From contig JBKHYG010000121.1 of assembly GCA_046565595.1 (NCBI GenBank), positions 330 to 64,329 of the forward strand: a stretch of 64,000 bases of DNA, written 5' to 3'. A model generated the notes under the pieces. That model ran no database searches. It saw only the letters and a list, made by a program, of their open reading frames with translations, and was not told the origin of the DNA. Shown here in pieces: positions 3,866 to 41,530 of the stretch (position 1 is the stretch's first letter; each line of letters opens with the position of its first letter). Made by a program: the position numbers and the translations under genes. Source of the stretch: Actinomycetota bacterium. GTDB taxonomy: Bacteria; Actinomycetota; AC-67.

Positions 3866-3884
3866 CACCTGGGGGTGTTCATCC

Positions 3885-17960: not shown

Positions 17961-18887
17961 TCACTTCGCGTAGGAATGCAAGCCAGCGATCCAGAGGTTC
18001 ACCGCGAAGTAGGTGAACATCACCGCAGCGAACCCGACCGTGTTGATGACCGCAACGCGCGTGCCCTTCCATCCAGCCGTCGAACGGGCGTGTAGTTCCG
18101 CTGCGTAGATGACCCAGGTCACGAAGGCCCAGGTCTCTTTAGGGTCCCAACCCCAATACCGCCCCCACGCTTCGTGCGCCCAGACCGCACCGGCCAGGAC
18201 AGCGAAGGTCCAGATCGGGAAGGCGAATGCCACTGTGCGAGCCGACATGCGATCGAGAGCGAGCGACGATGGGAGGCGTGCCATCAGGCCGCTTCGCCTC
18301 GGTTCCGGGGGCAGGGCTGGGTCGATCTCGGTCTCCGGCTCGAATGTCGAAACATGGGCTGCTCCGACGGTGGATCCGATGGTCCGCCGCTCCCAGCGTC
18401 TCTTGGTGACCGTGAGCACGGTGAATAGGAAGGAGATGCCGAAGAGGGTCGAACCGATGATCGCAGCGATCACATGGAACTTCAGCCAGATCGAGTTCAG
18501 GGCGGGCACCAATTCGCGCGCCGGTACATAGACCATCCTCGCGAAGGCGAGAGAGAGGACCGCGGCGCCTAGGGCGAATCCGGCGAACTCGCGCAGTCCG
18601 AGGCGCCTATCGATCCAGAGTAGATAGACGAGCACCAACAGCAAGCCGAGCAACGATGAGTACTCGTACATATTGCCCCAAGGGACCCTGCCAGCAGCCA
18701 GGCCTCTTGCTGTGACGGATCCGAGATGGACCGCCGCTCCGAGCCAGGTGACCCCTACTGCGAGGGAACCCAGTCGGTCCTTCTTGAAGGCCAGGAACGC
18801 GAAGCTGGCGACCATCGCAACGCCGTAAGCAGCCAACGCCCACCAGAACAGCGAATCCGATAGCGCAGCCAGTCCGGTGTCGATCAC
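17961..18887 (-). CDS. ccsA: cytochrome c-type biogenesis protein CcsA/ResC (System II heme handling)
   Basis: C-terminal W-rich heme-handling motif WGWDPKETWAF. Start set to GTG 18887, which overlaps the resB stop as GTGA and follows a GGAGGG Shine-Dalgarno. The Arg-rich extension in the track was rejected. Confidence 0.8.
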   Translation of the reverse strand: MIDTGLAALSDSLFWWALAAYGVAMVASFAFLAFKKDRLGSLAVGVTWLGAAVHLGSVTARGLAAGRVPWGNMYEYSSLLGLLLVLVYLLWIDRRLGLREFAGFALGAAVLSLAFARMVYVPARELVPALNSIWLKFHVIAAIIGSTLFGISFLFTVLTVTKRRWERRTIGSTVGAAHVSTFEPETEIDPALPPEPRRSGLMARLPSSLALDRMSARTVAFAFPIWTFAVLAGAVWAHEAWGRYWGWDPKETWAFVTWVIYAAELHARSTAGWKGTRVAVINTVGFAAVMFTYFAVNLWIAGLHSYAK

Positions 18888-20353
18888 GGTACCTTCACCC
18901 CTCCTAGTGCTCGTTCGTGCCCGATCACTCGATCGATCTCCTCGACCAGCCCATCGAACTCTTCGCTGGCGGCCTGCTTGCGTTGGAAAGCGTGTCCTGC
19001 GATCTCGAGGACGGTCATGTAGCCGTCCGTCGTGGCTCGCAGCCATACACGGCGGCGGAAACCATACAGGCCTGGGATGAGCCCGACCAACATGGCGACC
19101 GCCCCTGCGAACAGCATCCAGGCGCCAGGGTTGTACCCGATCTGGAACACCGAGTATTGAACCATGTCGGAGAAGGTGATCGTGATGCCGTTGGTCAGCT
19201 CGTCGCTTCGTCCTATCCCCACGATCGAATCACCGACTCGGGTCAGTCCGGCAGGGTCGAGAGCGTAGACATTCTGCGGCTTGTCCAAACCCAGGTCACC
19301 GAGCAGCACCTGCGAGACGATGACAGGGTCGCGGGGCGCTCGGTTGCGGTCTCGCAACCCTCCCTCGGGCCCCTCGAACGGGTCGACGAAGAGTTGCATG
19401 GCGAGACCTAGTTGCTGCGGCTGTGTTCCCGGCACCTTGGCTACCCCGGTCCATGCGCCGTTGTTGGGCAGGAATACGGTGGGGCCGTCATACAGGACCC
19501 GACCCTCCTGTTCGACCTTGATCACCGGAGCCCAGCCCCAGGCGATCTGGTAGATCCTTCGGCCCTCGTACCGCAGGGGATAGTTGACGGTGATCTTCTC
19601 GTCTTCCACGATGACCTGGCCATCGGCGTCGCGCAGGGTGACGGTCGACTCGAAGTGCTTCGGGATCCCGGATGGGAACCACTCGACATCGAACTCCTCT
19701 AGACGGAGTTGGAACCCGGTATGGCGTGAGCCGAAGAAGCGTCCGGGAGAGATGGTGTCGTATTCGGTAGGCGTGTCGGTGAAGGTCGCTCCTTCGACCA
19801 CGAGGACCTGGCCGCTCGCTCCGAAGAGTCTCCCAAGGGCAACCCCGAGCAATATGACGAGGATGGAGGTGTGGAACAGCAGACTGCCCGACTCGCGCAG
19901 GTGCCCACGCTCAGCGGCTACGCCGTCGTCGATATCGACGACCTTGAATCGCCTTCGGAGCAGCACCGAGCGCGCGGACTCGAGGACCTCGCTGGGCGAG
20001 CGGGTCGTGCGCGCGCGCACATACCGTTCCTGACGCTCGAGGTCTCCGGTCGCGTGCGGATCACGACGCAGCCGTCGAAGTTGGACCCGGTATCGGCTCG
20101 TCAAGCAGCCGATCAAGGAGACCAACAGGAGCAGATAGATGGGAGTGAACCACCAAGAGCCGTAGACATCGAACAGATCGAAGAACTCCGCGACAGGCGT
20201 CCAACCCGGGTTCTTGCTCTGCCACTGGCTGACCGAACGCGCCGAGATGGCTCGCTGAGGGAACAGCGAACCCACTGCCGATCCGGCAGCCAAGAAGAAC
20301 AGCAGGATGATCGCCGTACGCATCCGCGTCAGCCCCTGCCAGGCGCGTCTCAT
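18884..20353 (-). CDS. ccsB: cytochrome c biogenesis protein ResB/CcsB
   Basis: 489 aa. N-terminal transmembrane segment, large periplasmic domain, C-terminal transmembrane segment; ResB-like. Confidence 0.8.
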   Translation of the reverse strand: MRRAWQGLTRMRTAIILLFFLAAGSAVGSLFPQRAISARSVSQWQSKNPGWTPVAEFFDLFDVYGSWWFTPIYLLLLVSLIGCLTSRYRVQLRRLRRDPHATGDLERQERYVRARTTRSPSEVLESARSVLLRRRFKVVDIDDGVAAERGHLRESGSLLFHTSILVILLGVALGRLFGASGQVLVVEGATFTDTPTEYDTISPGRFFGSRHTGFQLRLEEFDVEWFPSGIPKHFESTVTLRDADGQVIVEDEKITVNYPLRYEGRRIYQIAWGWAPVIKVEQEGRVLYDGPTVFLPNNGAWTGVAKVPGTQPQQLGLAMQLFVDPFEGPEGGLRDRNRAPRDPVIVSQVLLGDLGLDKPQNVYALDPAGLTRVGDSIVGIGRSDELTNGITITFSDMVQYSVFQIGYNPGAWMLFAGAVAMLVGLIPGLYGFRRRVWLRATTDGYMTVLEIAGHAFQRKQAASEEFDGLVEEIDRVIGHERALGGVKVP

Positions 20354-20404
20354 CCGGGTCTACAGGGTACGCGCCTTCGGAGGGCGGCGCATCAGGCCTC
20401 GCTC

Positions 20405-21154
20405 TTAGATGGCGGGCACGAAGTTGTTGGACCAGCGCAGGATCGGAGCCATCAACGAGGTCCAGAGATCGGTCACGAGCAGGATGCCGATCGCGACCAT
20501 GAAGGTGCCGCCTACGACCTGGATCTTGCGGAGGTTCCTCTTGAAGAACGAGCCACGGAGGATGCGTTCTGCTCCCAGGGACGCGAGCAGGAACCACAGA
20601 CCGAAACCGAGCGAGAAGAAGATCAGCAGAAGCGTGCCTCGGACGACCGAGCCCTCGTTCGCTGCCAGCGTCAGGATGACCCCGAGGCCCGGTCCCACGC
20701 AGGGTGTCCATCCAGCGCCGAAGGCCATCCCGAGAGGGAACGCACCGGCCATGCCGGGCTTTACGCTCTTCAAGAATGGACGCTTCTCGCGTTCCAGGAA
20801 CGGGAAGAGTCGTGGGAGGATGAAGGCCATCCCCATCACTATGACGATCACGCCGGCGATGCGGGTTATCGCCTTGAGATTGCGGGTCAGTACGGATCCC
20901 AAAGCGCTCGCCGAAGCGCCGAGCGCAGCGAAGATGACAGTGAACCCCAGGATGAACAGCAGGGTTGCGAAGATCAGGCGTTTACGGCCTTGGCCCGGTT
21001 GAGCCGCGAGTTCCTGGCCGCCAACGCCTCCCATGTACGAGAGGTATCCCGGCAACAACGGCAAGACGCAGGGCGAGAAGAACGAGACGGTGCCGACGAT
21101 GAAGGCGATCAGCGGCCCGATCGGTCCGAGCAGTGCATCCTCGACGCCGCTCAC
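20405..21154 (-). CDS. ccdA: cytochrome c-type biogenesis thiol-disulfide transporter CcdA
   Basis: Two conserved Cys in transmembrane segments (FSPCVLPLLP, GWTPCVGP). Confidence 0.8.
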   Translation of the reverse strand: MSGVEDALLGPIGPLIAFIVGTVSFFSPCVLPLLPGYLSYMGGVGGQELAAQPGQGRKRLIFATLLFILGFTVIFAALGASASALGSVLTRNLKAITRIAGVIVIVMGMAFILPRLFPFLEREKRPFLKSVKPGMAGAFPLGMAFGAGWTPCVGPGLGVILTLAANEGSVVRGTLLLIFFSLGFGLWFLLASLGAERILRGSFFKRNLRKIQVVGGTFMVAIGILLVTDLWTSLMAPILRWSNNFVPAI

Positions 21155-21750
21155 GCCTGGACCTCTCTGATCAGCCCGACCAGTTCGTCGGCAGAACGAA
21201 CCGCCCCCAGAACCTGTGCCGCGATCCTCCCCTCGGCGTCGATCACGAAGGTCGCCGGCATGACCCGAACCCCGTACGCGAACGCGATGTTGGAGTCGGG
21301 GTCGTAGATGCTCGGGTAGGACACTTCGAACTCCTCGAGGAACGCGATCGCGGCGGCCCGTTGATCGCGCCTGGTGTTGACGCCTACGAATACAACGCCC
21401 TCAGGCTCGAGACGCTTCCATGCTTCTTCCAGCCGGGGCTCTTCGAGCCTGCAGGGTCCGCACCAGGAGCCCCAGAAGTTGACGACCGCCACCTTGCCTT
21501 CGATCTGGGAGGCTGCGAAGTATCCGCTCTGAAGGGTCTCGCCTTCCAAGGCCGGAGCTTCTCGGCGATCAGATGGCGCGATCCGAGAGATGTTCGTGCC
21601 CTCGGCTACAGATATGCCAGCGATCTGGGTTCCAGAAGAGCAACTCGCCAAGGCGAGCAGCAGGAGCGCGGCGGGGCGCGGTCGGATCACACCTGGAAGG
21701 CTAACCAGGACCGGCAGTGGGCGCTCTCGGGTGGTTGGATGAGGGGTCAT
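21151..21750 (-). CDS. TlpA/ResA-family thiol:disulfide oxidoreductase lipoprotein
   Basis: Lipobox LASC and WGSWCGPC active site. Start is ATG at 21750; a GTG at ~21690 is an alternative. Confidence 0.7.
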   Translation of the reverse strand: MTPHPTTRERPLPVLVSLPGVIRPRPAALLLLALASCSSGTQIAGISVAEGTNISRIAPSDRREAPALEGETLQSGYFAASQIEGKVAVVNFWGSWCGPCRLEEPRLEEAWKRLEPEGVVFVGVNTRRDQRAAAIAFLEEFEVSYPSIYDPDSNIAFAYGVRVMPATFVIDAEGRIAAQVLGAVRSADELVGLIREVQA

Positions 21751-22288
21751 GCAGCGTTGGTTGGCGATGGTTCTGCTGGTCCTGGCGGCGTGCGCTACGG
21801 GAGGTCCGGTGGCGGACGAACTCGGGGACTGCTCCGCGCCCAAGCTCTTGAAGGAGGGCGATCGGCTGCCCGAGTGCCGCTTCGAGACGCTCGACGGATC
21901 GGAGGTCGTGGCTACTTCCGACCTGTTGGGCAAGCCGACCTTGCTGAACTTCTGGGCATCCTGGTGCCTGGCATGCCAGAAGGAGATGCCCGCACTTGAC
22001 CGGTACGCCTCGGAGACCCCGGAGGTGAGGGTGCTAGGGGTCGATGTCATCGGGCTTCAGGGCGAGTCACTCGAAGCCGGCCGCAGGTTCTTCGAGTCGA
22101 TGGGGGTTTCCTATGAGAGCCTTGCCGACCGTGACGGACGCTTCTACGGCCTCTTCGGAGCTACGGCCCGCCCCATCATGCCGTTCACGATCGTCGTAGA
22201 TGCCGAAGGGACGGTCGCCGCTCGACGATTCGGTGAGTTGACCTTCGAGGAGATCCGGACCTTGGTGGACGAAGCCCTAGCCGCCTGA
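21749..22288 (+). CDS. TlpA-family thiol:disulfide oxidoreductase lipoprotein (second, divergent paralog)
   Basis: Lipobox LAAC and WASWCLAC active site. Confidence 0.7.
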   Translation: MQRWLAMVLLVLAACATGGPVADELGDCSAPKLLKEGDRLPECRFETLDGSEVVATSDLLGKPTLLNFWASWCLACQKEMPALDRYASETPEVRVLGVDVIGLQGESLEAGRRFFESMGVSYESLADRDGRFYGLFGATARPIMPFTIVVDAEGTVAARRFGELTFEEIRTLVDEALAA

Positions 22289-22389
22289 GGCTTCACTTCT
22301 TCACGAAGGCCCGACCGCCATGTCGACGCGCCGTCGCCAAGCGAGATAGTCTCGCGCTCGAACCGCACCGATCCGGGGAGTTACTGACG

Positions 22390-22812
22390 GTGAACATCAC
22401 CTGGGACCCGCTCGACCCGATCCTGCTGCTGTTCGAGGGCGTTTACATCGTCATCGCCGTCGGACTGCTGCTCTGGTCGTCGAGGGTCAAGAGCGAATGG
22501 GTCCGCGCCACGCTGGCCGGACTGGGGATCTCGATCCTCGGCTTCCGTCTGCTGGCGATCATCCCCAGTTGGTGGCTCTACTTCGCCGAGGGTCGCATGG
22601 GGTGGGGCGGTCAAGGTTGCATCGAGATCACCCCGAACACCCCAGACGGCATCCAGTGTTACAAGCAGGTCGGCAAGGATCTCGTCGTCGTGATCCAGAA
22701 CGCAGTCGTCCTTGGAGGGTTCGTGGCCGCGTTCGTGTGGTGGCAGAAGAAGCACCCGAAGCAACTCGCCCCCGGTGAAGAGAAACTCGAGACCACGGGC
22801 GGATACAAGTGA
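22390..22812 (+). CDS. hypothetical membrane protein, first gene of the cytochrome b6c-like operon
   Basis: GTG start. Three to four transmembrane helices. Its stop overlaps the ferredoxin GTG start as GTGA. Confidence 0.5.
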   Translation: MNITWDPLDPILLLFEGVYIVIAVGLLLWSSRVKSEWVRATLAGLGISILGFRLLAIIPSWWLYFAEGRMGWGGQGCIEITPNTPDGIQCYKQVGKDLVVVIQNAVVLGGFVAAFVWWQKKHPKQLAPGEEKLETTGGYK

Positions 22813-23147
22813 GCGCCAAGAGCAACAAGCCGCAGTTCTACGATGACTACGACCTGCAGGTCGTCGATCCTGGATGGCTGCAGAAGCGCGTCAAGCCCAA
22901 GCGCCACATCGGTCTCGAAGCCGACCTGTGCATCCTGTGTCGCGCATGTGAAGATGTCTGTCCGTGGGATTGCATCTACATGCTCTCTGGCGACATCGTG
23001 GCGACCGCGGACCAGCCCGCGATCAAGGACGCCGCCGGCCAAGCTCATGCTGTGTTCGTGATCGATGACACCGAGTGCACGCGTTGCGGGATCTGCGTTG
23101 ACCGCTGCCCTTCTGACGCGTTGTTCTACATCCGGATGGCCCAGTAG
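22809..23147 (+). CDS. 2[4Fe-4S] dicluster ferredoxin-domain protein
   Basis: Two CxxCxxCxxxCP motifs (CILCRACEDVCP, CTRCGICVDRCP). Confidence 0.7.
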   Translation: MSAKSNKPQFYDDYDLQVVDPGWLQKRVKPKRHIGLEADLCILCRACEDVCPWDCIYMLSGDIVATADQPAIKDAAGQAHAVFVIDDTECTRCGICVDRCPSDALFYIRMAQ

Positions 23148-23177
23148 GGCTGCTGATAGAGGCAGGGGAACCGAACC

Positions 23178-23966
23178 GTGTCGACCAAGGAAGACAAGCC
23201 GCTCCTCCAGGAGCAGTTGACGCTTCTCAAGGAGAAGACGCAGGACTCACAGGTCTGGAAGTCGATCTTCCGGCCGGGGTCCTTCCTGCGCAAGGGCTAC
23301 CGCGACACCTCTCGCGATCGCGCTCTGGCGACCATGAACAATGTCCTGTACCACCTCCATCCGACCAAGGTGCGGAGGCACGGGCTCAAACTGACCTACA
23401 CCTTCTGCTTGGGTGGGCTCTCGTTCTTCCTGTTCGTGCTCCTGACCATCACGGGCATCTATCTGATGTTCTTCTACCGTCCCGCGGTGGATCTGATCAG
23501 TGCGCCGGTCTTCCAAGATATGAAGGACCTGTCGCAGGCCATCACCTTCGGCCAACTCGTTCGAAACATGCACCGTTGGGCTGCTCACCTCATGGTGTTC
23601 AGCGTGTTCCTGCACATGGCTCGGGTCTTCTATCACGGCGCGTACAAGCCCCCGCGCGAGTTCAACTGGGTGGTCGGCGTCAACCTGTTGCAGATCACCT
23701 TGCTGCTGAGTTTCACCGGCTATCTGCTGCCCTGGGACCAGTTGGCGATCTGGGCCGTGACCGTTGGTACGAACATGATGGGTTACACCCCGGTGTTCGG
23801 AAGGCAGGTGAAGTTCGTGCTCGTGGGCGGGCTAGAGGTAGGGCCCCCTACCTTGATCCGATGGTATGTGCTTCATGTGTTGGCGTTACCGTTCGTAGCC
23901 GTGTTGCTGATGGCCGTGCACTTCTGGCGCATCCGCAAGGACGGCGGGATCTCAGGTCCGCTCTAG
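23178..23966 (+). CDS. qcrB: cytochrome b6-type subunit (N-terminal four-helix half of a split cytochrome b)
   Basis: Heme-ligand His residues in helices B and D. Conserved GYLLPWDQ motif. Sized like b6 (262 aa). GTG start with an AGGGGA Shine-Dalgarno. Confidence 0.85.
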   Translation: MSTKEDKPLLQEQLTLLKEKTQDSQVWKSIFRPGSFLRKGYRDTSRDRALATMNNVLYHLHPTKVRRHGLKLTYTFCLGGLSFFLFVLLTITGIYLMFFYRPAVDLISAPVFQDMKDLSQAITFGQLVRNMHRWAAHLMVFSVFLHMARVFYHGAYKPPREFNWVVGVNLLQITLLLSFTGYLLPWDQLAIWAVTVGTNMMGYTPVFGRQVKFVLVGGLEVGPPTLIRWYVLHVLALPFVAVLLMAVHFWRIRKDGGISGPL

Positions 23967-23996
23967 GCCGATGTTGATGTATACGGGAGACTCGCT

Positions 23997-24839
23997 ATGA
24001 GCGATGAAGTCGGTCTCGATCAAGAGGTATTCGATAAGGCGATCGCCGATGGGAAGAGCGAACGCGTGGCTCGCGCGTTGGCGAAATCTGCGTGGGTTCG
24101 TAAGACGCGCGGTCCGGCCGACCCCGGCACCCCGAAGGCGGCAGCGGCCGAAGCTGGCACCCCTGAACCATCGAGCGCGGCACCCGCAGCCGGGGCGGGT
24201 GCAGCCCCTACCGCGACCGCGGTGGCTGCTCCTGCAGCCGGCTCGGTCGAGAGACTGACGCCCGAGCAGCGTGCCGCCCGCGTGGCCGCCGCGACAGGGC
24301 GCAAGGTCGACGAGAACGGCGGGGGCGGCCGCGGCTTGACCGGTGAGCAGACCCAGCGACTCCTCGCGGTGGTCCCGCCGGCCGGTATCCAGCGTGTCTC
24401 CAAGCGGCAGGACGACAAGGTCAACACCTGGCCGCATCTGATCCTCGCCGAGTTCGTCGCGATCCTGGTGATGACCGCCTTCGTCCTGGTCTTCTCGAGC
24501 TTCAAGGACGCACCCTTCCGGGAACTCGCGAACCCGAGCCTGACCCCGAACCCTTCCAAGGCTCCGTGGTACTTCCTGGGCCTGCAGGAGTTGCTGCGCT
24601 ACTTCCACCCGATGGTCGCCGGTGTGACGATCCCCGGTCTGGGCTTGTTCGCTCTTATGGCGGTTCCGTACGCGGACAAGAATCCGAGCATGCGGCCCGA
24701 CCGGCGCAAGTTGGCGATCATCTTGTTCACGATCTTCATGATGTTCTGGGCCGTCTTGACCATCGTCGGTGTCCTGTTCCGTGGCCCCGGCTACAACTTC
24801 ATCTGGCCGTGGAACGACGGCGTGTTCTTCGACCTCTAG
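23997..24839 (+). CDS. subunit IV-like (C-terminal half of split cytochrome b) with a ~140-aa Ala/Pro-rich N-terminal extension
   Basis: PEWY-region motif present as KAPWYFLGLQELL. Three C-terminal transmembrane helices. Confidence 0.8.
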   Translation: MSDEVGLDQEVFDKAIADGKSERVARALAKSAWVRKTRGPADPGTPKAAAAEAGTPEPSSAAPAAGAGAAPTATAVAAPAAGSVERLTPEQRAARVAAATGRKVDENGGGGRGLTGEQTQRLLAVVPPAGIQRVSKRQDDKVNTWPHLILAEFVAILVMTAFVLVFSSFKDAPFRELANPSLTPNPSKAPWYFLGLQELLRYFHPMVAGVTIPGLGLFALMAVPYADKNPSMRPDRRKLAIILFTIFMMFWAVLTIVGVLFRGPGYNFIWPWNDGVFFDL

Positions 24840-24849
24840 GAGTGGATGG

Positions 24850-25578
24850 ATGTTCGCGCTGACCAAAGTTCAATGGGCCGTCGCCGGGATCGCGATCCTG
24901 GTTGCGCTCGCTGGTCTAGCCCTGATGGCCGTGAACGCTCTGGCCATCCTCAGGCCACGCAAACCCGGTGAAGAGAAGACCCCCCGCAAGTTGCTGGGTC
25001 GTCCCCAGCAGCTGTCTCGTCGTGCGTTCTTCAGGCGCGTCCTAGGAGCGGGTTTCGCTCTCGCCATCACCGAAGGTTTGGCGCTGACCTCGCTGGCCTA
25101 CCTCTGGCCGAGCCAGTCAGGAGGCTTCGGCGGGAAGATCCGCCTGCCCGACAGCGCGACGACGATCAAGGAAACCATCGCACAGACCAAGCAGCCCTAT
25201 TACTTCGCACCGGGACGCGTCTATGTGGTCCGGTACGACGCCGCTGACGACGCCAACGGCATCTATACCGATGCCGGCCTGGTGTCCGACGGCCTGATGG
25301 CGCTGTACCAGCGATGCGTGCACCTCGGATGCCGCGTGCCCTTCTGCGAGACTTCCCAGTGGTTCGAGTGCCCTTGTCATGGATCGAAGTACAACAGGGC
25401 CGGAGAGTTCCGTGCCGGCCCTGCGCCCCGGGGATTGGACCGATTCCCGATCGAGGTCGCCGACGATGTCGTCACCGTCAACACCGGCGTGATCGTGACC
25501 GGCCCGCCACGAGGCACCAACACCACCGGCCAGGACCCCGAAGGCCCCTTCTGCGTCGGCGTTGGCGCAGCGGAGTGA
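24850..25578 (+). CDS. qcrA: Rieske [2Fe-2S] iron-sulfur subunit with Tat signal
   Basis: Tat motif SRRAFFRR. Rieske boxes CVHLGC and CPCHGS. Confidence 0.85.
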   Translation: MFALTKVQWAVAGIAILVALAGLALMAVNALAILRPRKPGEEKTPRKLLGRPQQLSRRAFFRRVLGAGFALAITEGLALTSLAYLWPSQSGGFGGKIRLPDSATTIKETIAQTKQPYYFAPGRVYVVRYDAADDANGIYTDAGLVSDGLMALYQRCVHLGCRVPFCETSQWFECPCHGSKYNRAGEFRAGPAPRGLDRFPIEVADDVVTVNTGVIVTGPPRGTNTTGQDPEGPFCVGVGAAE

Positions 25579-25588
25579 GGTAGACCTG

Positions 25589-26464
25589 ATGACGATCCTC
25601 GCACTCTCCTCCCGCACGACCATCGCTTTGACGGTGGCGATCGTGCTCCTGCTGATCGGCGGGCTGCTCTATGTGACGGCCCGCGGAGAGATAAAGGGCA
25701 AGCGTAAGGCTCGCATCCCTGCTGCGATGCGACCGGGTTCCTCCGATGCGGATCTCGAGAAGTCGGTCATCGAGCGGTACCTGTTGGTAGGGGCTTTGAC
25801 CGCGCTCGGTATCGCGATCTGGATGCCGCTGTACTGGCTGAAGGAGCCCTCACGGCTCGCCGGCAAGCAGCAGTTCTTCCTCGAACGCGAGGTCGCCGAA
25901 GGACAGGATCTGTACCTGAGTCTGTGTTCGACCTGCCATGGGCAGGAGGCTCAAGGCAGTCCCAGGACGGTCTTCATCGACGGCAAGCAGTTCCAGTACG
26001 CGGAGCCGCCACTCAAGTACGCCTACTCGCGCTACCGCCAGGCCGGGCGCAACGAGGAAGACATCACCCAGTTGCTTCACGACGCGATAGCACGCGGCCG
26101 CCCGGGTACCCCGATGCCTACCTGGAGCCTCGCCTACGGAGGCCCGTTGAACAGTGCTCAGGTCGAGAACATCATGCTCTGGCTGCAGAGCATCCAAGAA
26201 GACTTCCCGAAACCTGATGCGGGTGCCACTGGTGAGCAGTTGTTCGCTGCCAACTGTGCGATCTGCCACGGTAAGGAGGGTCAAGGCGCGATCGGCCCCA
26301 ACCTTCAGGTCGCCTTCGATCGACTCACGCGCGAGCAGGTCAGGACTGCCATACATGAGGGCCGCTTGAACACGAACAGGCCATCGATGCCTGCCTGGGC
26401 GGGGCTCGGAGACAGGGCTATCGAGAAGCTGATCGACTTCATAGCGAGCATCCAGAAGGGTTGA
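25589..26464 (+). CDS. qcrC: membrane-anchored diheme cytochrome c subunit
   Basis: N-terminal transmembrane helix and two CxxCH motifs (CSTCHG, CAICHG). Confidence 0.8.
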   Translation: MTILALSSRTTIALTVAIVLLLIGGLLYVTARGEIKGKRKARIPAAMRPGSSDADLEKSVIERYLLVGALTALGIAIWMPLYWLKEPSRLAGKQQFFLEREVAEGQDLYLSLCSTCHGQEAQGSPRTVFIDGKQFQYAEPPLKYAYSRYRQAGRNEEDITQLLHDAIARGRPGTPMPTWSLAYGGPLNSAQVENIMLWLQSIQEDFPKPDAGATGEQLFAANCAICHGKEGQGAIGPNLQVAFDRLTREQVRTAIHEGRLNTNRPSMPAWAGLGDRAIEKLIDFIASIQKG

Positions 26465-27264
26465 TGACGATGATCGCAGCGCTCACTCAGTTCTTCCCGC
26501 TCGCGTGCGACGGGTGTTTCAAGGGGTTCCCCGCATGGGTCGGCCTCTTCCTGCTGGTGGTGAGTCTCATCGGCAGCATCTGGGTTCTGCTCTGGTCGAA
26601 CCTTGGAGCACGGCTGGCTTATCTGGTCGTGATGGTCTCGTTGTCGGCGTTCATGATGATCTTGAGCTTGCTCTGGATGATCGGAGGACCGGGGACCACG
26701 ACCATGACGGGTCCGCGTGGACGAGAAGTGTCATGGGTGCCTTTCCTGCCGAACTCTGAATTCGCGAACGATTTCAGGGCAGAGATCGAGTCGTTCCCGA
26801 GCGGTGGGGGATGGGAACCGATCGGTACCGTGTTCCCGGGCAATGTTGACACCAACGGCGAATTCGAGGTCGTCCGTAACGATGTCGCCACCGCGCTGGC
26901 GGATCTCGCCGTCGTTCAAGGACTCGAAGCGACCGAACCGAGCGACTGGCTGTTCTACGACCAACAGAAGGGTCCTCTAACCCCGGACGAAAGGGATAAG
27001 GCGGCCGCGGCCACGGTCAAGTTCAATCAGGCCGCTTCGACCAAGCTGATCGCGGGGATCCAGATCCCGGCTACCGACAAGCATCGCGGCATGACCGTGT
27101 TCGTCTACAGGGACAAGGGTCTGGTGTTCCTGCCCTCGCTGCTGTTCCTGATCGTCAGCGTGCTCGGGTTCGTCCTTCATACCTGGCTGCTCGCACGGTA
27201 CGAGGAGGAAGAGCGCCAGCGCGAAGAGCAGATGGGAGAAGCACCCGAGCCAGCGATGGCTTAA
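26464..27264 (+). CDS. hypothetical membrane protein, last gene of the b6c-like operon
   Basis: TGATG coupling to the cytochrome c stop. Transmembrane helices at both ends with a soluble middle domain and an acidic C-terminus. Confidence 0.5.
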   Translation: MTMIAALTQFFPLACDGCFKGFPAWVGLFLLVVSLIGSIWVLLWSNLGARLAYLVVMVSLSAFMMILSLLWMIGGPGTTTMTGPRGREVSWVPFLPNSEFANDFRAEIESFPSGGGWEPIGTVFPGNVDTNGEFEVVRNDVATALADLAVVQGLEATEPSDWLFYDQQKGPLTPDERDKAAAATVKFNQAASTKLIAGIQIPATDKHRGMTVFVYRDKGLVFLPSLLFLIVSVLGFVLHTWLLARYEEEERQREEQMGEAPEPAMA

Positions 27265-27284
27265 CCGGGGCCAGGTACATCCGG

Positions 27285-27310
27285 GAGGCCTCGCCGTTCG
27301 GCGGGGCCTC
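27285..27310. terminator. GC-rich hairpin between convergent operons (candidate bidirectional terminator)
   Basis: GAGGCCTCGCC-(GTTC)-GGCGGGGCCTC, an 11-bp stem including one G-U pair. Confidence 0.4.
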
Positions 27311-27315
27311 TCTCG

Positions 27316-28794
27316 TCACGGGCGTATGCCGGCCTGGTCGAGCCAGGCGCGTGCGGCTGCCGCGAGGCTCGATGCGCTCGCGACCTCTGCTACGCCAACC
27401 ACGGGGAAGCCCTCGGACCTCGCCGCCTCGGCGGTTGGGGGCCCCAGGCAAACCGCTGGCAGGTGCGCTGGTTCCGAGCCGTGCGACCTCATCAGTTCCG
27501 CCGTCGAGCGTGCTGTCTCTGCGCTTGCCAGCAGAACGGCTCGGACCTGGCCGCGCTCGATCATCTGCAAGAGCTGGTCAGAGAGGGCTTCAACTCGCGC
27601 GGTTGTGTACGCATGGCGGTGTTCGACCGTCCAGCCTTTGGCTTCCAGCGCGATCGCTAAGCCCGGGTCCGTCATGTTCCCTCCGACGATGGCGACGGTT
27701 CCCTTTCCTCGAGGGAAGCCCGCGGCGAGATCCGCTACGGAGTAGGCCTCGGGCACGAGATCGGGTCTCCCGATGAGCGGACGCAGAGGTTCGCCGGTCG
27801 CAGGTCCGATGCAGGCGAATCCGATCCCCGCGAGTTCCCTACCTCCCCTGCCTTGCGAACGCATGGCAGAGGCGAAAGCCTCGGAGCCGTTGCGGCTGGT
27901 GAACACGAACCAGGCGATCCCCTCGGCCCGAGCTATGGATCCGTCGTTGGTGGGTGCGATCTTTATCGTCGGCTCGATGTGCGCTGCGATGTGACGATCG
28001 GCCAACTCCTTGACGAGCCTCGAGACCTGGCGGATCGGTCGCGTCACCCAGACGATCGGGCGTGGATCCCTTGGTTCCGCGAACCGGACGGTTGCGCCGA
28101 CGACGATCGTTACCGGAGCTTCCAGGTGGCTCGTTGCTCCTGGAAGTTCTGCGAGCGTCGTCACTACCGTCTGCTCGAGAGGAGTCGTTGCCGCCTGGAT
28201 GGCTGCCGCCGGTTCGTCCGGCTCTCGTCCTGCGTCGATCAACCCCCGGCTGACATCACGGACCGATGCAAGTCCCATGAGCACGACGACGGTGTCGGCT
28301 GCAGACGCCGCGGACCAGTCGCGCCGCGGGCCGTCGGCTTCGGTGGCGGTCAGCACGCAGAAGGACGACGCGGCACCCCGGTGGGTCACCGGTATCCCTG
28401 CCGAAGCGGGAGCCGCCAGGGCGGAACTGATACCGGGAACCACGACGCACTCCGTTCCCTCTTGGATGAGCCGCGAAACCTCTTCGCCGCCGCGCCCGAA
28501 GACGAAAGGGTCGCCTCCCTTCAGTCGCACGACGCGGCGTCCCCTCCGCGCCTGATCGACCAGCGCCTGGGTGATGTCATCCTGCTGGGGTCCAGAGCCA
28601 GGAGCCTTGCCGACCTCGACCACCTCAGACGTCGGTGCGATCAGGGCTCTGATCTCAGCTCCCACGAGCCGATCGATGTAGACGATCTCGGCTCTGCGGA
28701 TCTCCTCCAATGCTCGCAGCGTCAACAGATCGGCGGCTCCGGGGCCGGCGCCGACGATGGCGACGCGACCGCGCGCACCGCCGCCTGAGGTCAT
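27316..28794 (-). CDS. bifunctional uroporphyrinogen-III C-methyltransferase / uroporphyrinogen-III synthase (CobA-HemD fusion)
   Basis: N-terminal CobA domain (VAIVGAGPGAADLLTLRA, GGDPFVFGRGGEE) plus a C-terminal HemD-like domain. Start set to the ATG overlapping the hemC stop as ATGA. The track's Arg-rich extension was rejected. Confidence 0.8.
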   Translation of the reverse strand: MTSGGGARGRVAIVGAGPGAADLLTLRALEEIRRAEIVYIDRLVGAEIRALIAPTSEVVEVGKAPGSGPQQDDITQALVDQARRGRRVVRLKGGDPFVFGRGGEEVSRLIQEGTECVVVPGISSALAAPASAGIPVTHRGAASSFCVLTATEADGPRRDWSAASAADTVVVLMGLASVRDVSRGLIDAGREPDEPAAAIQAATTPLEQTVVTTLAELPGATSHLEAPVTIVVGATVRFAEPRDPRPIVWVTRPIRQVSRLVKELADRHIAAHIEPTIKIAPTNDGSIARAEGIAWFVFTSRNGSEAFASAMRSQGRGGRELAGIGFACIGPATGEPLRPLIGRPDLVPEAYSVADLAAGFPRGKGTVAIVGGNMTDPGLAIALEAKGWTVEHRHAYTTARVEALSDQLLQMIERGQVRAVLLASAETARSTAELMRSHGSEPAHLPAVCLGPPTAEAARSEGFPVVGVAEVASASSLAAAARAWLDQAGIRP

Positions 28795-30581: not shown

Positions 30582-31898
30582 ATGGTGGTCCGAGAGGTCG
30601 ATGTGATCATCGCCGGGGGAGGACCCGGCGGGTCCACCGCTGCCTACCATCTGGCCGTCCGCGGCAAGCGCGTACTGGTGATCGAGAAGAGCGCCTTTCC
30701 TCGCGAGAAGGTCTGCGGTGACGGACTCACTCCCAGGGCGGTCAAGGCGCTCCACCACCTCGGCCTGGACACCACCGGCCCCGAATGGGCTCGTTCCGAG
30801 GGGCTCAGGATCATCGGGGCTGGGCATACCCTCGAGCTCCCCTGGCCAGAGTTGAACGGATGGCCGGGCTATGCCTTGGTGCGCGCGCGCCTCGATCTAG
30901 ATGAGCTATTGCTGCGCCACGCCGAGAAGGCGGGTGCGACGGTCTGGACCGAGACCGAGGTCGTGGATCCCATCCTTGACCCTGACGGCGTCGTGATCGG
31001 GGTGCGGTGCCGCTCGGTGCAGTCGCCAGACGACGATCAGCCCAGCCTGTTCGACGGCCACGCTAAACGGGGTCGGGTCCGCGGCGAGATCCTCGAGGTT
31101 CGAGCTCCGGTCGTGATCGCCGCGGATGGCGTGGCGAACAGGTTCGGACAGGCCCTCGGGATCAGACGGATCGAGAAGCGCCCCATGGGCGTCGCGGTAC
31201 GAACCTACTTCCGCTCTCCTCGGGCCAGCGATAACTACCTCGAGAGCTACCTGGAACTGTGGCGCGGCGACGATCTGCTGCCAGGCTACGGGTGGATCTT
31301 CCCGACCCCAGACGGGACCGTGAACATCGGGCTGGGATTGTTGAACTCCTCCGCGCACTTCCAGCAGGTCGACTATCGAGGGCTGCTGACCGACTGGGTG
31401 GCGAACCTGCCGCCAGATTGGGAACTGGACCGGGACAACCAGGTCGGCCAGATCAGGGGAGCCGGCCTGCCGATGGGCTTCAACCGGACCGCTCTGGCCA
31501 AGCCCGGGCTCATGCTCATCGGAGACGCGGCGGGAGCGGTGAACCCCTTCAACGGCGAGGGGATCGCCTACGCGATGGAGACCGGCGAGTTGGCCGCCGG
31601 TGCCGCTATCGAGGCCTTGGCTTCGGGCTCTCCTCACGCCTTGCGGGTCTACCCCGATCGACTGAAGGAGACCTACGAGGGCTACTTCATCTTGGGGCGT
31701 GCGTTCGTCAGGTTGATCGGCGAGCCGAAGGTCATGCGCTTCCTGACCCAACATGGTTTGAAGCGCCGAGATCTGATGCGCTTCGCCTTCAAGGTCTTGG
31801 CGAACCTGGCGGAACCTCGTCGTGGTGACTCTCACGACCGGTTGTTCAACGCGATGGTCAAGGTCGCGCCCACCATCAACAAGGTGGTGGGGATCTGA
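30582..31898 (+). CDS. FAD-dependent geranylgeranyl reductase family oxidoreductase (MenJ-like)
   Basis: FAD-binding GxGxxG (VIIAGGGPGGSTAAYHLA). Length and motifs fit the geranylgeranyl reductase family. Confidence 0.75.
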   Translation: MVVREVDVIIAGGGPGGSTAAYHLAVRGKRVLVIEKSAFPREKVCGDGLTPRAVKALHHLGLDTTGPEWARSEGLRIIGAGHTLELPWPELNGWPGYALVRARLDLDELLLRHAEKAGATVWTETEVVDPILDPDGVVIGVRCRSVQSPDDDQPSLFDGHAKRGRVRGEILEVRAPVVIAADGVANRFGQALGIRRIEKRPMGVAVRTYFRSPRASDNYLESYLELWRGDDLLPGYGWIFPTPDGTVNIGLGLLNSSAHFQQVDYRGLLTDWVANLPPDWELDRDNQVGQIRGAGLPMGFNRTALAKPGLMLIGDAAGAVNPFNGEGIAYAMETGELAAGAAIEALASGSPHALRVYPDRLKETYEGYFILGRAFVRLIGEPKVMRFLTQHGLKRRDLMRFAFKVLANLAEPRRGDSHDRLFNAMVKVAPTINKVVGI

Positions 31899-32442: not shown

Positions 32443-32921
32443 TGGGCTGGGAGCAGAACCTCCCCAACGGGATCCTCCTTACGAGCGTAGAGAAGTTCGT
32501 CCAGTGGTCTCGCGCGAATTCCCTCTGGCCGGCGACCTTCGGTCTGGCCTGCTGCGCCATCGAGATGATGGCTACCGGCGCAGCGACCCATGATCTCGCT
32601 CGGTTCGGGATGGAGGTCTTCCGGGCATCGCCGCGCCAAGCCGACCTGATGATCGTCGCCGGCCGCGTCAGCCAGAAGATGGCGCCGGTCCTCCGTCAGA
32701 TCTACGACCAGATGCCCGAGCCCAAGTGGGTCATCAGCATGGGCGTGTGTGCCACCAGCGGAGGCATGTTCAACAACTATGCGATAGTCCAAGGCGTCGA
32801 CCAGATCGTCCCCGTGGACATGTATGTGCCCGGGTGTCCCCCACGGCCCGAGATGCTGATGGACGGCATCTTGAAGTTGCACGAGCAGATCAAGGCGACC
32901 CCGCTGAAGGCGGACCGATGA
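32442..32921 (+). CDS. nuoB: NADH-quinone oxidoreductase subunit B
   Basis: Cluster N2 ligands present ([20 protein letters not shown]). Confidence 0.9.
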
Positions 32922-33478
32922 CGAGCGAAGAGTTGCTAGCGCTTTGCGCACGAGCCTCGTCCGAGGTCGGAGGCTCGCTTGAACCTGTGGATGAGCGAGG
33001 CGTGACGAGCCTGGAAGTGGCCGCGGATCGTTTGGTCGAAGTCGTCACCTGGTTCAGGGACAACGGACCCTTCGAACTTCTAGCCGACCTATCGGTGATC
33101 GACTGGCTCGGGATCAATCCTGACGAGAAGCGCTTTTGCGTGGGGTACATGCTCGCATCGCCACAGCATCCCGCACGGTTGCAACTGCGCGTCTACCTCG
33201 GGTCGCAACAGCCTAAGGTCGCTTCCTTGACCGGTCTGTGGCCGGGTGCGGATGCGCTGGAACGCGAGGCGTACGACTTCTTCGGGATCGGGTTCGAGGG
33301 CCATCCGAACCTGCGTCGCATGTTCATGCCCGACGATTGGGAGGGTCACCCTCAGCGCAAGGACTATCCCCTCGGCGGGATCGATGTTCGTTACGAGCAT
33401 GGGCAGGCTGTCACCCCACCCGATGACCGTGCGAAGCGTTCGACGACCACCTCTGGCTATCCGGGCAGGACCGCATGA
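32918..33478 (+). CDS. nuoC: NADH-quinone oxidoreductase subunit C
   Basis: ATGA coupling. NuoC 30-kDa subunit motifs. The upstream extension in the track was rejected. Confidence 0.85.
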
Positions 33479-34743
33479 GCGAGGTCTTCACCACCGGACA
33501 GGATTGGAGCGCCGCGGTCTCCGAGATCAGCGACGAGACGCTGGTCATCAACATGGGGCCGCAGCATCCGTCCACCCACGGGGTGCTCCGGTTGGTTCTC
33601 ACCCTCGACGGTGAGACGGTGATCGACGCCGACAGCGTCATCGGGTACCTACATACCGGCATCGAGAAGAACGCCGAGGTTCGTACCTGGGTCCAGGGCG
33701 TCACCTTCGTGACTCGTATGGATTACCTGTCGCCGTTCTTCAACGAGGTGGGTTACTGCCTTGCCGTCGAACAGCTGCTGGGGATCGAAGCTCCGCCACG
33801 CGCGCAGGCCATCCGCGTCCTGCTGATGGAGTTGAACAGGATCAGCAGCCACCTGGTCTGGCTGGCGACGACAGGCATGGAGCTCGGAGCGTTGTCGATG
33901 ATGCTCTACGGCTTCCGCGAGCGCGAACAACTCCTGGACATCTTCGAGCACATAACCGGCCTACGGATGAACCACGCTTTCATCAGGCCGGGCGGTCTCG
34001 TGACCGATCTTCCTGAAGGGTCGGTCGAGAAGATCGAGGAGTTCCTGGCCTCGTTCCCCGACCGTCTCGCAGAGTACGAAGGGTTGCTGACCCAGAACCC
34101 GACCTGGATCGACCGCAACCGCGGGATCGGGATCCTCGACGCTCCTACCGCTCTCGGACTCGGCGTGACCGGTCCGCTTCTACGCGCAGCAGGCGTCGAC
34201 TGGGATCTCCGCAAGCAACGCCCATACTGCGGTTATGAGAACTACGAGTTCGATGTCCCGACCGACACCGACGCCGACTGCATGGCCCGGTACCGGGTGC
34301 GTCTGGAAGAGATGCGCCAATCGATGAGGATCGTGCGGCAGGTCCTCGATTCCCTGCCCGCCGGACGGATCATGATCGAGGACCCGAAGATCGCTTGGCC
34401 AGCGCAACTGTCGCTGGGCCCGGACGGGCTCGGGAACGCTCAGGAGTACATCCGCCGGATCATGGGCGAATCGATGGAAGCGCTGATCCAGCATTTCAAG
34501 CTGGTTACCGAAGGCTTCAGCATCCCGGTCGGCGAGACGACCGTCGCGGTCGAGTCGCCCCGCGGTGAGACCTCGTTCCGTGTGGCGAGCGGAGGCAAGA
34601 ACAGGCCTTGGCGCGTCCATGTACGCGACGCCTCCTTCGTGAACCTCCAAGCGATGCCGCACATGGTCCGCGGGTTGCTGGTGGCAGATGTGATCTCGGC
34701 CGTCGCGTCGATCGACCCGGTGATGGGAGGTGTGGATCGATGA
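33475..34743 (+). CDS. nuoD: NADH-quinone oxidoreductase subunit D
   Basis: 49-kDa subunit. N-terminus [14 protein letters not shown] and C-terminus DPVMGGVDR. Confidence 0.9.
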
Positions 34744-35369
34744 GCGGTGGTGGCAAGGCGGATACATCGCTGATGGGGGTACCCCTGATCAGACCGGCCG
34801 TTGCGCCTCTCTCGGATCGGTTCCGTTCCGACGCCGACGAGGTGATCGCTAGATACCCCAAGGGCCAGGAACGCAGCGCGCTACTTCCGCTGCTCTACCT
34901 GGTCCAGGGTGAGCACGGCTTCGTCTCGAGCCAAGGCATCAGCGCCATCTCGGAGATGCTTGGCCTGACCCGAGCCGAAGTGGCGGGCGTGGCCAGCTTC
35001 TACACGATGTTCAAACGGTCGCCGCAAGGAAGATGGTTGATCAGCGTGTGTACCCAACCCGCGTGCGCGTTCGCTGGCGGGACCGAACTCATCCGGAGGT
35101 TGGAGGAGACGCTGGGCGTCGAGCGTGGAGGCACGAGCCCTGACGGCACGATCTCCATCGAAGAGGTCGAGTGTCTATGCGCCTGTGACGGCGCACCGGT
35201 GTTCAGCGTCAACTATGAGAACTACGAACGCATGGCCGTCGAGGACGCCGTGTCGATGGTCGAGTCCTTGAGATCTGGCGGCGAGCCTCCTGCGGGTGCG
35301 CGCGGTGAGATCCCGGCGGACTTCAAGACCGTGTCGCGCCGCATGAGCGGAGTGGAGGCGCCGCGATGA
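34740..35369 (+). CDS. nuoE: NADH-quinone oxidoreductase subunit E
   Basis: Thioredoxin-like [2Fe-2S] Cys ligands ([14 protein letters not shown]). ATGA coupled. Confidence 0.85.
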
Positions 35370-38979: not shown

Positions 38980-40142
38980 ACGAGGGCCTGCTCATCTCGA
39001 CCATCAAAGCCGTGATCGTCTTCGGAGCCCTGATGGGATCCGTACCTCTGGCCGTATGGGCTGAGCGCCGGGTCGTCGCCTTCATGCAGCAGCGGCTCGG
39101 ACCTAACCGCGTAGGGCCTTTCGGCATCCTTCAAGGCCTCGCCGATGGCGTGAAGCTCTTCTTCAAGGAGGACATCCGGCCGACCAATGTGGACAGAGGC
39201 ACCTACATCGCGGCGCCCATGATGTCGGTGATCCCGGCCTTCCTGTCAGCAGCGGTGATCCCCTTCGGTCCAGACATCACGATCGGCGGCCGTGTCGTCT
39301 CGATGCAACTGGCCGAACTGAATGTGGGCGTGTTGTTCTTCCTGGCGATGGGAAGCATGATGGTCTACGGCGTAACGCTGGCCGGTTGGTCGTCTGGCTC
39401 GGTCTATCCGCTGCTCGGTGGCGTCCGCAGCGCCGCACAGATGATCTCCTACGAGATGGCGCTTGGCCTCTCGGTGGTCGCTGTGGTGATGCAGTCGGGA
39501 ACCTTGTCGACCTCGGGGATCGTGGACGCCCAAGCGGGCTCCTTCCTGGGAGTCCTTCCTGCGTGGAACATCTTCACCCAGCTGCCGGCTTTCCTGATCT
39601 TCTGCGTGGCGGGTCTGGCTGAGACGAACCGAGCTCCCTTCGATCTGGCAGAAGCCGAGAGTGAGCTCGTCGGCGGCTTCCATACCGAGTACTCGAGCAT
39701 CAAGTTCGCGATGTTCATGCTGGCCGAGTACCTACATGTCATCACCACGAGCGCGATCGCGGTGACCTTGTTCCTCGGCGGCTGGCGCGGACCCACGCTG
39801 CCCTTCCTGACACCGCTGTGGCCGCTCGTCTGGTTCGGGCTGAAGCTCGGCTTCATGGTGTTCCTGTTCATGTGGGTGCGCGCAAGCCTTCCACGGGTCC
39901 GCTACGACATCCTCATGCGGTACGGATGGAAGACCCTGCTGCCCGCATCGCTGGGCTGGGTTGCCATCACCGCGGTCCTGCTGGTCCTGAGTTCGGAACT
40001 CGATCGGCCAACGCTCGCCTCCGTCCTCGGCTTGATCGCGGCACTGGTGATCCTGGGGCGTGCCGCGCTTGTGACCTGGCGTCGGTTCGGCACGCTAGGA
40101 CCCCTAGCCCTGATGAGGAAGGTGCGTCATGGCGTTCAGTGA
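38976..40142 (+). CDS. nuoH: NADH-quinone oxidoreductase subunit H
   Basis: NuoH/ND1 signature ([23 protein letters not shown]). Confidence 0.9.
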
Positions 40143-41231: not shown

Positions 41232-41530
41232 TCCAGCCCGCACAGTTCTTGGCATTGGCCGCCATGCTCTTCGCGGTCGGTTCGGCTGGCGTGATCCTGC
41301 GTCGGAACCCGCTGGTGATGTTCATGGGGATCGAGCTGATGCTGAACGCGGTCAACCTGACCCTGGTCACCTTCGCCAAGGTGCATGGGACGCTCGACGG
41401 TCAGGTGCTCGCCTTCTTCGTCATCGTCGTCGCTGCTGCCGAGGTGGTTGTCGGACTCGCGATCATCGTGCAGATGTTCCGACGGGTCCGAGGCGCCGAT
41501 GTGGATGATCGGAGTTCGCTCAGATGGTGA
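41228..41530 (+). CDS. nuoK: NADH-quinone oxidoreductase subunit K
   Basis: 100 aa, three transmembrane helices, ND4L-like. Confidence 0.85.

Follow-up and report, generated by a model that had tools for sequence, protein, structure and literature searches.

Canonical cytochrome bc1 and b6f complexes reach the cytoplasm through quinone alone, and a direct feed from ferredoxin to haem cn, long proposed for cyclic electron flow in b6f (PMC5600118), has been debated since the b6f structures. Anammox (anaerobic ammonium-oxidizing) and planctomycete complexes with a cytoplasmic iron-sulfur (FeS)/NAD(P) oxidoreductase subunit have already been described (PMC5600118, PMC12954380). In Kuenenia, the cytoplasmic NAD(P) reductase subunits of two such complexes are Kuste4570 and Kustd1483; four [4Fe-4S]/[3Fe-4S] clusters have been modelled between cytochrome b and FAD, and Arg511 of Kuste4570 has been modelled at the propionates of an interfacial haem (PMC12954380). 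Here we examine a small ferredoxin gene (22809-23147, + strand) that lies inside a cytochrome bc-type operon on a contig of an Actinomycetota bacterium (JBKHYG010000121.1), of which a stretch of 64,000 nucleotides (nt), hereafter the window, was analysed. The gene had been singled out in an earlier reading of the same DNA (the original prediction) on the premise that bc and b6f complexes do not normally contain a 4Fe-4S ferredoxin, which holds for the canonical complexes but not for those of anammox bacteria and planctomycetes (PMC5600118, PMC12954380). Judging from its sequence and setting, we consider it fairly likely that the protein is the cytoplasmic-side, two-[4Fe-4S] wire subunit of an APWY-clade, b6c-type menaquinol:cytochrome c oxidoreductase. 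What appears to be new is the free-standing two-cluster version with its own membrane partner, distributed across Acidimicrobiia, Nitriliruptoria and related classes, since cytoplasmic FeS oxidoreductase subunits are already known from subfamily G. Full-text searches of the literature turned up no account of a small ferredoxin encoded in the bc operons of actinobacteria; the operon diagrams of Dibrova et al. 2013 and ten Brink et al. 2013 may show it.

The predicted 112-residue protein indeed carries two CxxCxxCxxxCP motifs (C41/C44/C47/C51-P52 and C90/C93/C96/C100-P101), and all eight cysteines and both prolines are invariant among 98 aligned family members. Its GTG start begins at g22809 and, as had been claimed, overlaps the TGA (22810-22812) that ends the upstream open reading frame (ORF) at 22390-22812, which encodes a small membrane protein that we call memA; it is the only start codon in frame 5' of the first motif. 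The cytochrome b6 gene said to follow immediately starts at 23178, 30 nt past the ferredoxin stop. Pfam Fer4 matches the protein at E=7.7e-14 (51.3 bits, cut-off 21.1) and Fer4_7 at 40.8 bits (cut-off 27), with Fer4_10 and Fer4_21 likewise above their cut-offs, and together with the motifs this identifies a bacterial-type 2x[4Fe-4S] ferredoxin fold. The ferredoxin is predicted to be cytoplasmic, since we looked for a signal peptide, a twin-arginine translocation (Tat) motif and a transmembrane or hydrophobic segment in its sequence and found none. Beyond the cluster ligands, the family has an N-terminal signature (Y14, V19, D20, W23, L24, V28, K29), a CPW motif and a conserved basic patch (K26-R27-x-K29-x-K31-R32). 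Matches in the PDB are confined to generic polyferredoxins and NuoI, and in the databases the homologues are named just "4Fe-4S binding protein" or similar. The gene is genuine and evolves under purifying selection: the ratio of non-synonymous to synonymous substitution rates (dN/dS) is 0.08-0.22 against seven relatives, and across 58 complete loci the ferredoxin is the second-best conserved protein of the operon, above the Rieske protein (median identity to the window 76.7% for b6, 63.6% for the ferredoxin, 54.4% for subunit IV, 46.0% for Rieske, 33.5% for cytochrome c and ~31-32% for the two membrane proteins).

Evidence for a functional tie to the complex comes from the company that the gene keeps. 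A search of 5.8 billion proteins returned 588 homologues of 103-162 residues, and a scan of one genome per species returned 328 ferredoxin loci; the family is small, with 10 clusters at ≤1e-30 and 161 at ≤1e-10 in a profile search of 1.84 billion representatives. Going by the labels of metagenome-assembled genomes (MAGs), on which the taxonomy of the loci rests, the best 80 of the 328 loci are all Actinomycetota (Nitriliruptorales, Euzebyales, Egibacterales and MAGs labelled Frankiaceae or Mycobacteriales) except for one labelled Acidobacteria, and they include one cultured carrier, Salsipaludibacter albus AS10. Cytochrome b6 directly follows the ferredoxin in 80 of 84 loci, and the remaining four contigs stop within ~150 nt. 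The same order is kept in five further loci of divergent subfamilies, whose flanking genes vary. In the Acidimicrobiales subfamily (>2100 proteins), nuoA-D come directly after the operon; the P0123 type adjoins genes of the System I (Ccm) cytochrome c maturation pathway and the P0160 type a caa3 oxidase operon, while the P0391 type shows the ferredoxin-b6 order as well. These subfamilies are just 34-45% identical to one another. Every family member with enough flanking sequence lies between a small membrane-protein gene and b6; ordinary free-standing homologues with no conserved bc linkage, which the original prediction had named as the outcome that would undo it, were looked for and did not appear. 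The linkage of the ferredoxin to b6 is not due to chance. The edge of the family is marked by P0215 (E=1e-13), a piece of a GltD-like gene that lacks the family signature and has unrelated neighbours. The GTGA coupling, real in the window, recurs only among its closest relatives, most relatives having the two genes 3-100 nt apart; it was therefore dropped as a conserved feature, and adjacency is what is conserved. The ferredoxin (75% identity) and b6 (83%) of the single "Acidobacteria bacterium" MAG (L003/L009, JACQXY010000003.1) are nested among Actinomycetota sequences; its bin label may be wrong, or the operon may have been transferred.

The association was also examined in the reverse direction, by querying metagenome contigs with cytochrome b6, which yielded 80 loci, 62 of them with ≥450 nt of upstream sequence. 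A family ferredoxin lies directly upstream of b6 in 38 of these 62, a large oxidoreductase in 10, and neither in 14, nine of which have 2.7-4 kilobases (kb) of upstream sequence; thus, the FeS module is clade-specific rather than universal. In 37 of the 38 ferredoxin-linked loci the b6 protein is 66-81% identical to that of the window (the exception, L169, is at 58%), and by this comparison the b6 proteins accompanied by the ferredoxin form a clade of their own. This clade has two features in its b6. The cysteine predicted to bind haem cn is present in 38/38 ferredoxin-linked metagenome b6 proteins and absent from several of the oxidoreductase-linked or unlinked ones, and a six-residue insert, PGSxxR/K, in the cytoplasmic N-terminus (residues 27-41; window 23256-23300) occurs in 38/38 of the ferredoxin-linked proteins and 0/24 of the others. 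This insert may be where b6 makes contact with the ferredoxin or memA.

With regard to the origin of the protein, the suggested profile search of NuoI-like versus bacterial ferredoxins gave generic Fer4-type Pfam matches and excluded NuoI. The best NCBIfam match is NuoI (TIGR01971), at 42.4 bits against a cut-off of 113.05; the ferredoxin gene is not placed between nuoH and nuoJ, where the window's true NuoI (40129-40695) sits, and the two proteins are 29% identical (41 bits, BLASTP). The low score, the separate NuoI in the window and the low identity led us to reject a NuoI identity. In the search of 1.84 billion representatives, the nearest single-domain matches outside the family (P0214, P0215, P0220, P0225, P0227, P0229, P0232, P0235, P0241, P0242, P0247, P0251 and P0259) have, in the sequences examined, the segment RCLxC..NI[FIMV][IL]D...C[IV]LC before the first cluster (P0259 starts inside it). 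Judging from the full-length matches and the longer fragments, these are the C-terminal dicluster domains of GltD-like NAD(P) oxidoreductases that also have Fer4_20 and Pyr_redox_2, as illustrated by P0225, P0241 and P0242 (Fer4_20, Pyr_redox_2 and Fer4). An hhalign alignment of the ferredoxin with the oxidoreductase dicluster domain scored E=2.7e-27 (probability 99.75%); over 82 columns the two are 38% identical, and their spacers are of equal length. BLASTP against P0225 gave 40% identity and 62 bits.

The oxidoreductase genes, too, are found within Rieske/cytochrome b operons, in 3/3 look-ups and 10 further metagenome loci. That of P0225 precedes Rieske, long cytochrome b and multihaem c genes, that of P0242 precedes Rieske, and that of P0516, from a Chloroflexi MAG, overlaps by 4 nt the start of cytochrome b6, which is accompanied by subunit IV. 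In eight metagenome loci an oxidoreductase of 600-700 residues ends at or overlaps the b6 start, and in two more it lies one gene further upstream. In L095 and L096 the oxidoreductase gene overlaps the b6 start, the slot held elsewhere by the ferredoxin. The named relatives of P0225 come from Planctomycetes, Omnitrophica, Nitrospinota, Chloroflexi and Acidobacteriota, which matches the published distribution of subfamily G. The 112-residue ferredoxin, having Fer4-type matches only, lacks the N-terminal Fer4_20 and FAD/NAD(P) domains of this family, and has in common with it the C-terminal dicluster domain and a gene within a Rieske/cytochrome b operon. By these comparisons, it is homologous to one domain of the Kuste4570/Kustd1483-type family without being a member of it. 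In L093 (2-2444), two tandem GltD-like oxidoreductases with C-terminal dicluster domains are followed by Rieske, fused cytochrome b and a multihaem c of 760 residues; the fused cytochrome b has no haem cn cysteine (TWGLGG).

The operon genes of the window, together with two loci from relatives, are as follows.

21749-22288, + strand: TlpA/ResA-like thiol-disulfide oxidoreductase (Pfam AhpC-TSA, 6.5e-18, and Redoxin), possibly the first operon gene
22390-22812, + strand: memA, 140-residue membrane protein with ~3 helices, its stop overlapping the ferredoxin start
22809-23147, + strand: 2x[4Fe-4S] ferredoxin, 112 residues, GTG start (translation, Pfam and profile searches)
23178-23966, + strand: cytochrome b6-type subunit with four helices (Pfam Cytochrome_B, 5.6e-40)
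23997-24839, + strand: subunit IV (Pfam Cytochrom_B_C, 8.7e-10), quinol-oxidation (Qo) motif APWY at residues 188-191
24769-25578, + strand: Rieske [2Fe-2S] protein (Pfam Rieske, 8.1e-10), Tat motif RRAFFRR, boxes CVHLGC and CPCHGSKY
25562-26464, + strand: membrane-anchored dihaem cytochrome c (Pfam Cytochrome_CBB3 and Cytochrom_C, two stretches)
26461-27264, + strand: memB, 267-residue membrane protein with a periplasmic domain, last operon gene
L088, 30-6530, and L090, 1656-6528: System I loci next to the operon in relatives (from gene context)

The complex encoded here has a split cytochrome b, as Cytochrome_B, Cytochrom_B_C and Rieske matches fall on three consecutive genes. The b6 subunit has the haem cn motif TFC77LGG, the cysteine being present in 78/79 b6 sequences in the form [YFL]CLGG, from which binding of the haem is predicted; WCMGG has been reported as the typical form of the APWY clade (PMC4122944). 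Subunit IV carries APWY (ORF 23997-24839, in the context ...NPSKAPWYFLGLQELL...), a motif kept in 65 sequences. Because it combines this motif with the CxGG cysteine of b6, the operon is placed by its motifs in the APWY clade of Kao & Hunte, which here probably corresponds to subfamily G of Dibrova et al. (PMC5600118); Rubrobacteridae and Ilumatobacter are among the clade's members, and the clade is uncharacterized (PMC4122944). Among solved structures the closest relative of the b6 subunit is cyanobacterial b6 (E=2.4e-41), with none closer in the PDB, and its N-terminal extension of ~40 residues is almost invariant (residues 27-80, 79 sequences).

Compared with described systems, the nearest likeness is to the anammox complexes (Kuste4569-4574 and Kustd1480-1485, subfamily G), which likewise have a split b6 and subunit IV, a high-potential Rieske signature and a cytoplasmic FeS protein encoded inside the operon. 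The window ferredoxin is homologous to the C-terminal dicluster of the anammox-type oxidoreductases and sits in the same slot before b6, and its K26-R27-x-K29-x-K31-R32 patch aligns with the Arg of RCLxC (R511 in P0225). Unlike those proteins, it lacks the GltD-like Fer4_20 and FAD/NAD(P) domains and the catalytic site, and it has two clusters rather than four; the window also differs in its extra membrane protein memA, a family-specific N-terminal extension and a c-type subunit that is dihaem, not hexa- or octahaem. A further difference is that the actinobacterial operons adjoin caa3 oxidase or nuo genes. The hosts are apparently aerobic Actinomycetota. On the favoured reading, the complex would represent a pared-down form of the anammox-type module.

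The b6f complexes of cyanobacteria and chloroplasts and the b6c complexes of Firmicutes and heliobacteria share with the window a four-helix b6, a subunit IV and the CxGG cysteine. They differ in encoding no FeS protein other than Rieske, in having PEWY or PDWY rather than APWY as the Qo motif, and in lacking the N-terminal extensions of the window b6 (~40 residues) and subunit IV (~140 residues). NuoI/TYKY and PsaC/PscB resemble the ferredoxin in size, in their two clusters, in the long spacer between motifs and in the proposed terminal-wire role, and there is weak similarity (E ~1e-7 for NuoI, ~1e-3 for PscB), but the ferredoxin lies outside these families and its partner complex is another. 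The Mycobacterium and Corynebacterium hosts of QcrCAB belong to the same phylum, Actinomycetota, and we know of no ferredoxin gene in QcrCAB operons. The window Rieske and dihaem c match QcrA and QcrC weakly in NCBIfam (the latter through bc1_QcrC_actin), and the QcrA/B/C scores are all far under the cut-offs. QcrB is an unsplit cytochrome b of a different clade with PDWY and no CxGG (Kao & Hunte, PMC4122944).

In the reading that we favour, the ferredoxin would dock on the n-side (cytoplasmic face) of the b6 dimer, perhaps helped by memA, and its two clusters would act as a short wire, linking haems bn/cn on that side with a soluble electron-transfer partner in the cytoplasm, comparable to the role of PsaC in photosystem I or to that of the Kuste4570/Kustd1483 C-terminal domain in the anammox models. 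A wire would fit the alignment of the basic patch, the N-terminal insert of b6 and the invariant GGY(K/R) tail of memA. Of the functions offered in the original prediction, an alternative electron input or output is thus favoured by homology to wire domains, while the other, an assembly factor, gained no positive support. As for direction, we lean slightly toward outward flow. Outward, quinol oxidation at the Qo site, pulled by the high-potential Rieske protein, would push the second electron onto the low-potential clusters; inward, reduced ferredoxin would pass electrons via the FeS clusters and haem cn to menaquinone, as in the proposal for b6f cyclic flow. Supporting the outward direction, the Rieske Ser/Tyr pair of CPCHGS.Y, which raises the Rieske potential (PMC12954380), is kept, with both residues conserved in ≥95% of 60 sequences. 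A high-potential Rieske protein combined with a low-potential quinone would call for very low-potential b haems, as has been argued for Kuenenia. Actinomycetota use menaquinone, and a MenJ-like gene of the geranylgeranyl-reductase family at 30582-31898 fits such use. Supporting the inward direction, haems of ordinary potential would let electrons from reduced ferredoxin flow downhill to menaquinone, haem cn is kept and the complex looks like a housekeeping complex III.

These observations suggest that complex III of several actinobacterial classes exchanges electrons with the cytoplasm by a link not described before. A bolder version, which we offer tentatively and regard as doubtful, is that the main respiratory complex III of Acidimicrobiia, Nitriliruptoria and related Actinomycetota is a stable ferredoxin-b6 complex whose dicluster subunit exchanges electrons with haem bn/cn, possibly via an additional interfacial haem like that of the anammox models. 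If so, menaquinol could yield low-potential reducing power by bifurcation at Qo, or the complex could act as a ferredoxin:menaquinone reductase, and in either direction it would be an operon-encoded counterpart of the debated route from ferredoxin to haem cn in b6f. Otherwise, a cytoplasmic FeS module is known only from the complexes of anammox bacteria, which are hard to grow, and the mechanism of those complexes has so far just been modelled. This family offers a minimal module, with two clusters but without a flavin; its lineages are abundant and include cultured members, and in them it belongs to what is apparently a housekeeping complex III beside oxidase and complex I genes. It therefore opens the docking of FeS proteins on the n-side, the direction of electron flow and the relation to the larger oxidoreductase-bearing complexes to biochemistry and cryo-electron microscopy. 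There is also a consequence for annotation, since the protein goes under the bare name "4Fe-4S binding protein" and the neighbouring b6 may wrongly receive the name ExtP.

Several points weigh against a wire subunit. Membership of the ferredoxin in the complex is a prediction from sequence, the docking site is deduced from gene order and homology, and the anammox mechanism drawn on for comparison exists only as a model. Profile comparison gives good scores between any two families of dicluster ferredoxins, which makes the hhalign score weak taken alone, and for this reason the argument for homology is built on the database-wide ranking together with gene context; the fit of the P0225-type architecture (Fer4_20, FAD/NAD(P), C-terminal dicluster) to Kuste4570/Kustd1483 comes from comparison with the published description only. 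AlphaFold2 models of the ferredoxin were poor, with a mean predicted confidence (pLDDT) of 48.9 from 32 sequences and 55.0 from 98. The HxHP motif of b6 (H59/H61) was considered as a mark of docking or haem binding and rejected: all ferredoxin-linked and oxidoreductase-linked b6 proteins have it, and so do 9/9 relatives that lack an FeS gene within 2.7-4 kb, which makes it a feature of the clade rather than evidence of docking. By position, HxHP may nevertheless correspond to the His that ligates the predicted interfacial haem in the Kuenenia models, and in a Chloroflexi b6 homologue the first of its His residues falls at position 43, matching the number given for Kuste4571.

Other accounts of the gene fare less well. 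The ferredoxin, perhaps with memA, could be an assembly or maturation factor that builds the complex and is absent from the mature enzyme, for instance through redox chemistry in covalent haem cn attachment or in cofactor insertion. The operon does adjoin cytochrome c maturation genes (ResB/CcsB/CcdA in the window, Ccm in relatives), and the haem cn cysteine is found in 78/79 and 38/38 ferredoxin-linked b6 proteins and is missing from several that are oxidoreductase-linked or unlinked. To our knowledge, the way in which haem cn is attached outside phototrophs is not established, and we know of no FeS protein among the haem cn maturation proteins CCB1-4. We consider this account improbable, however: conservation of the ferredoxin exceeds that of three core subunits, a level rarely seen in a chaperone; the proteins nearest to it in sequence are wire domains that form part of an NAD(P)/FAD enzyme; and some CxGG-bearing b6 genes have no ferredoxin nearby. 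Slightly less probable again is that memA and the ferredoxin form a membrane-tethered module that serves other cytoplasmic enzymes and is co-transcribed for co-regulation only. The two genes are adjacent and translationally coupled in the window, and the cytoplasmic tail of memA is conserved; yet it is the ferredoxin-b6 order that persists across subfamilies 34-45% identical while flanks vary, the homologous domain in other phyla is fused to a protein that also stands directly before b6, and the b6 insert co-occurs with the ferredoxin. That an ordinary soluble ferredoxin or NuoI paralogue landed here by chance would account for the generic Fer4 matches and for NuoI being the best NCBIfam match (42.4 bits), but the linkage data contradict it, and we think it very improbable given a score far below the 113-bit cut-off in a window with its own NuoI, b6 linkage in every informative locus and the specific N-terminal signature (Y14, V19, D20, W23, L24).

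Of the two membrane proteins that accompany the complex, memA had no match in Pfam, NCBIfam or the PDB. Of 88 loci, at least 57 have an equivalent ORF with 2-3 helices 5' of the ferredoxin, a lower bound because the upstream-ORF script chose spurious long ORFs in about a quarter of these loci, which have a high guanine-plus-cytosine content. At a median identity of 32%, memA is conserved only at W37, P59 and the C-terminal tail GE.K(P/R)E..GGY(K/R) (window 22750-22812). A similar tail, AEAGGYRK, ends the L101 oxidoreductase (about 3880-3921), and in Acidimicrobiales the ferredoxins, P0128 for example, terminate with HGYGYGMRF; all three may thus share a Gly-Tyr-basic tail as a contact peptide. 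The second protein, memB, gave no Pfam match above threshold and none in NCBIfam or the PDB. Its periplasmic domain of ~150 residues is flanked by two helices on the N-terminal side and one on the C-terminal side. In nearly all relatives memB is encoded after cytochrome c, at an identity of just 23-51%. In Acidimicrobiales, the nuo operon starts right after memB (L085/L086, 12047-14417), which places complexes I and III back to back.

In subunit IV, the ~140-residue N-terminal extension (window 23997-24420) is cytoplasmic and has no equivalent in canonical subunit IV; it consists of 35 moderately conserved residues, an Ala/Pro-rich low-complexity stretch and conserved segments (LTPEQRAARVAAA, RLLAVVPPAGIQRV). 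The GTG start of Rieske at 24769, which produces a 71-nt overlap with subunit IV, is probably too early, ATG 24850 being the likelier start. The Rieske ORF has hydrophobic helices both before and after the Tat motif, an arrangement resembling the dual general secretory (Sec)/Tat topology that is reportedly found in actinobacterial Rieske proteins. The b6 subunit barely passes the NCBIfam model for ExtP, a b-type cytochrome of the selenite/tellurite reduction operon (NF040969; 293.9 bits, cut-off 290), and when all eight operon proteins were searched against NCBIfam the sole other Ext match was subunit IV to ExtQ (52.7 bits, cut-off 150). With such a marginal score and no further ext gene nearby, the name is likely to be misleading for this b6 and its many relatives.

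Around the operon, hemC, hemD-cobA and rex lie downstream, and a complete nuo operon, which includes the NuoI noted above, begins ~5 kb downstream of the ferredoxin-b6 operon (32726-46385). A scan of 21500-27600 for promoters and terminators found nothing beyond shuffled expectation. System II cytochrome c maturation genes (ResB, CcsB, CcdA and a thioredoxin-like protein) lie beside the operon in divergent orientation (17961-22050, - strand). System II adjoins the ferredoxin-b6 operon in the window and in L002, and System I (CcmABCEFH) does so in two divergent subfamilies; the maturation system has been swapped while the neighbourhood stayed. A TlpA/ResA-like homologue is found close 5' of the membrane-protein gene in many relatives. 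In the window, the thioredoxin-like ORFs at 21151-22050 (- strand) and 21749-22288 (+ strand) overlap by 300 nt as listed; the minus-strand ORF is probably over-extended, with a lipoprotein-like start (MTPHP...LLLLALASC) near 21717, and both ORFs resemble ResA/TlpA-type lipoproteins.

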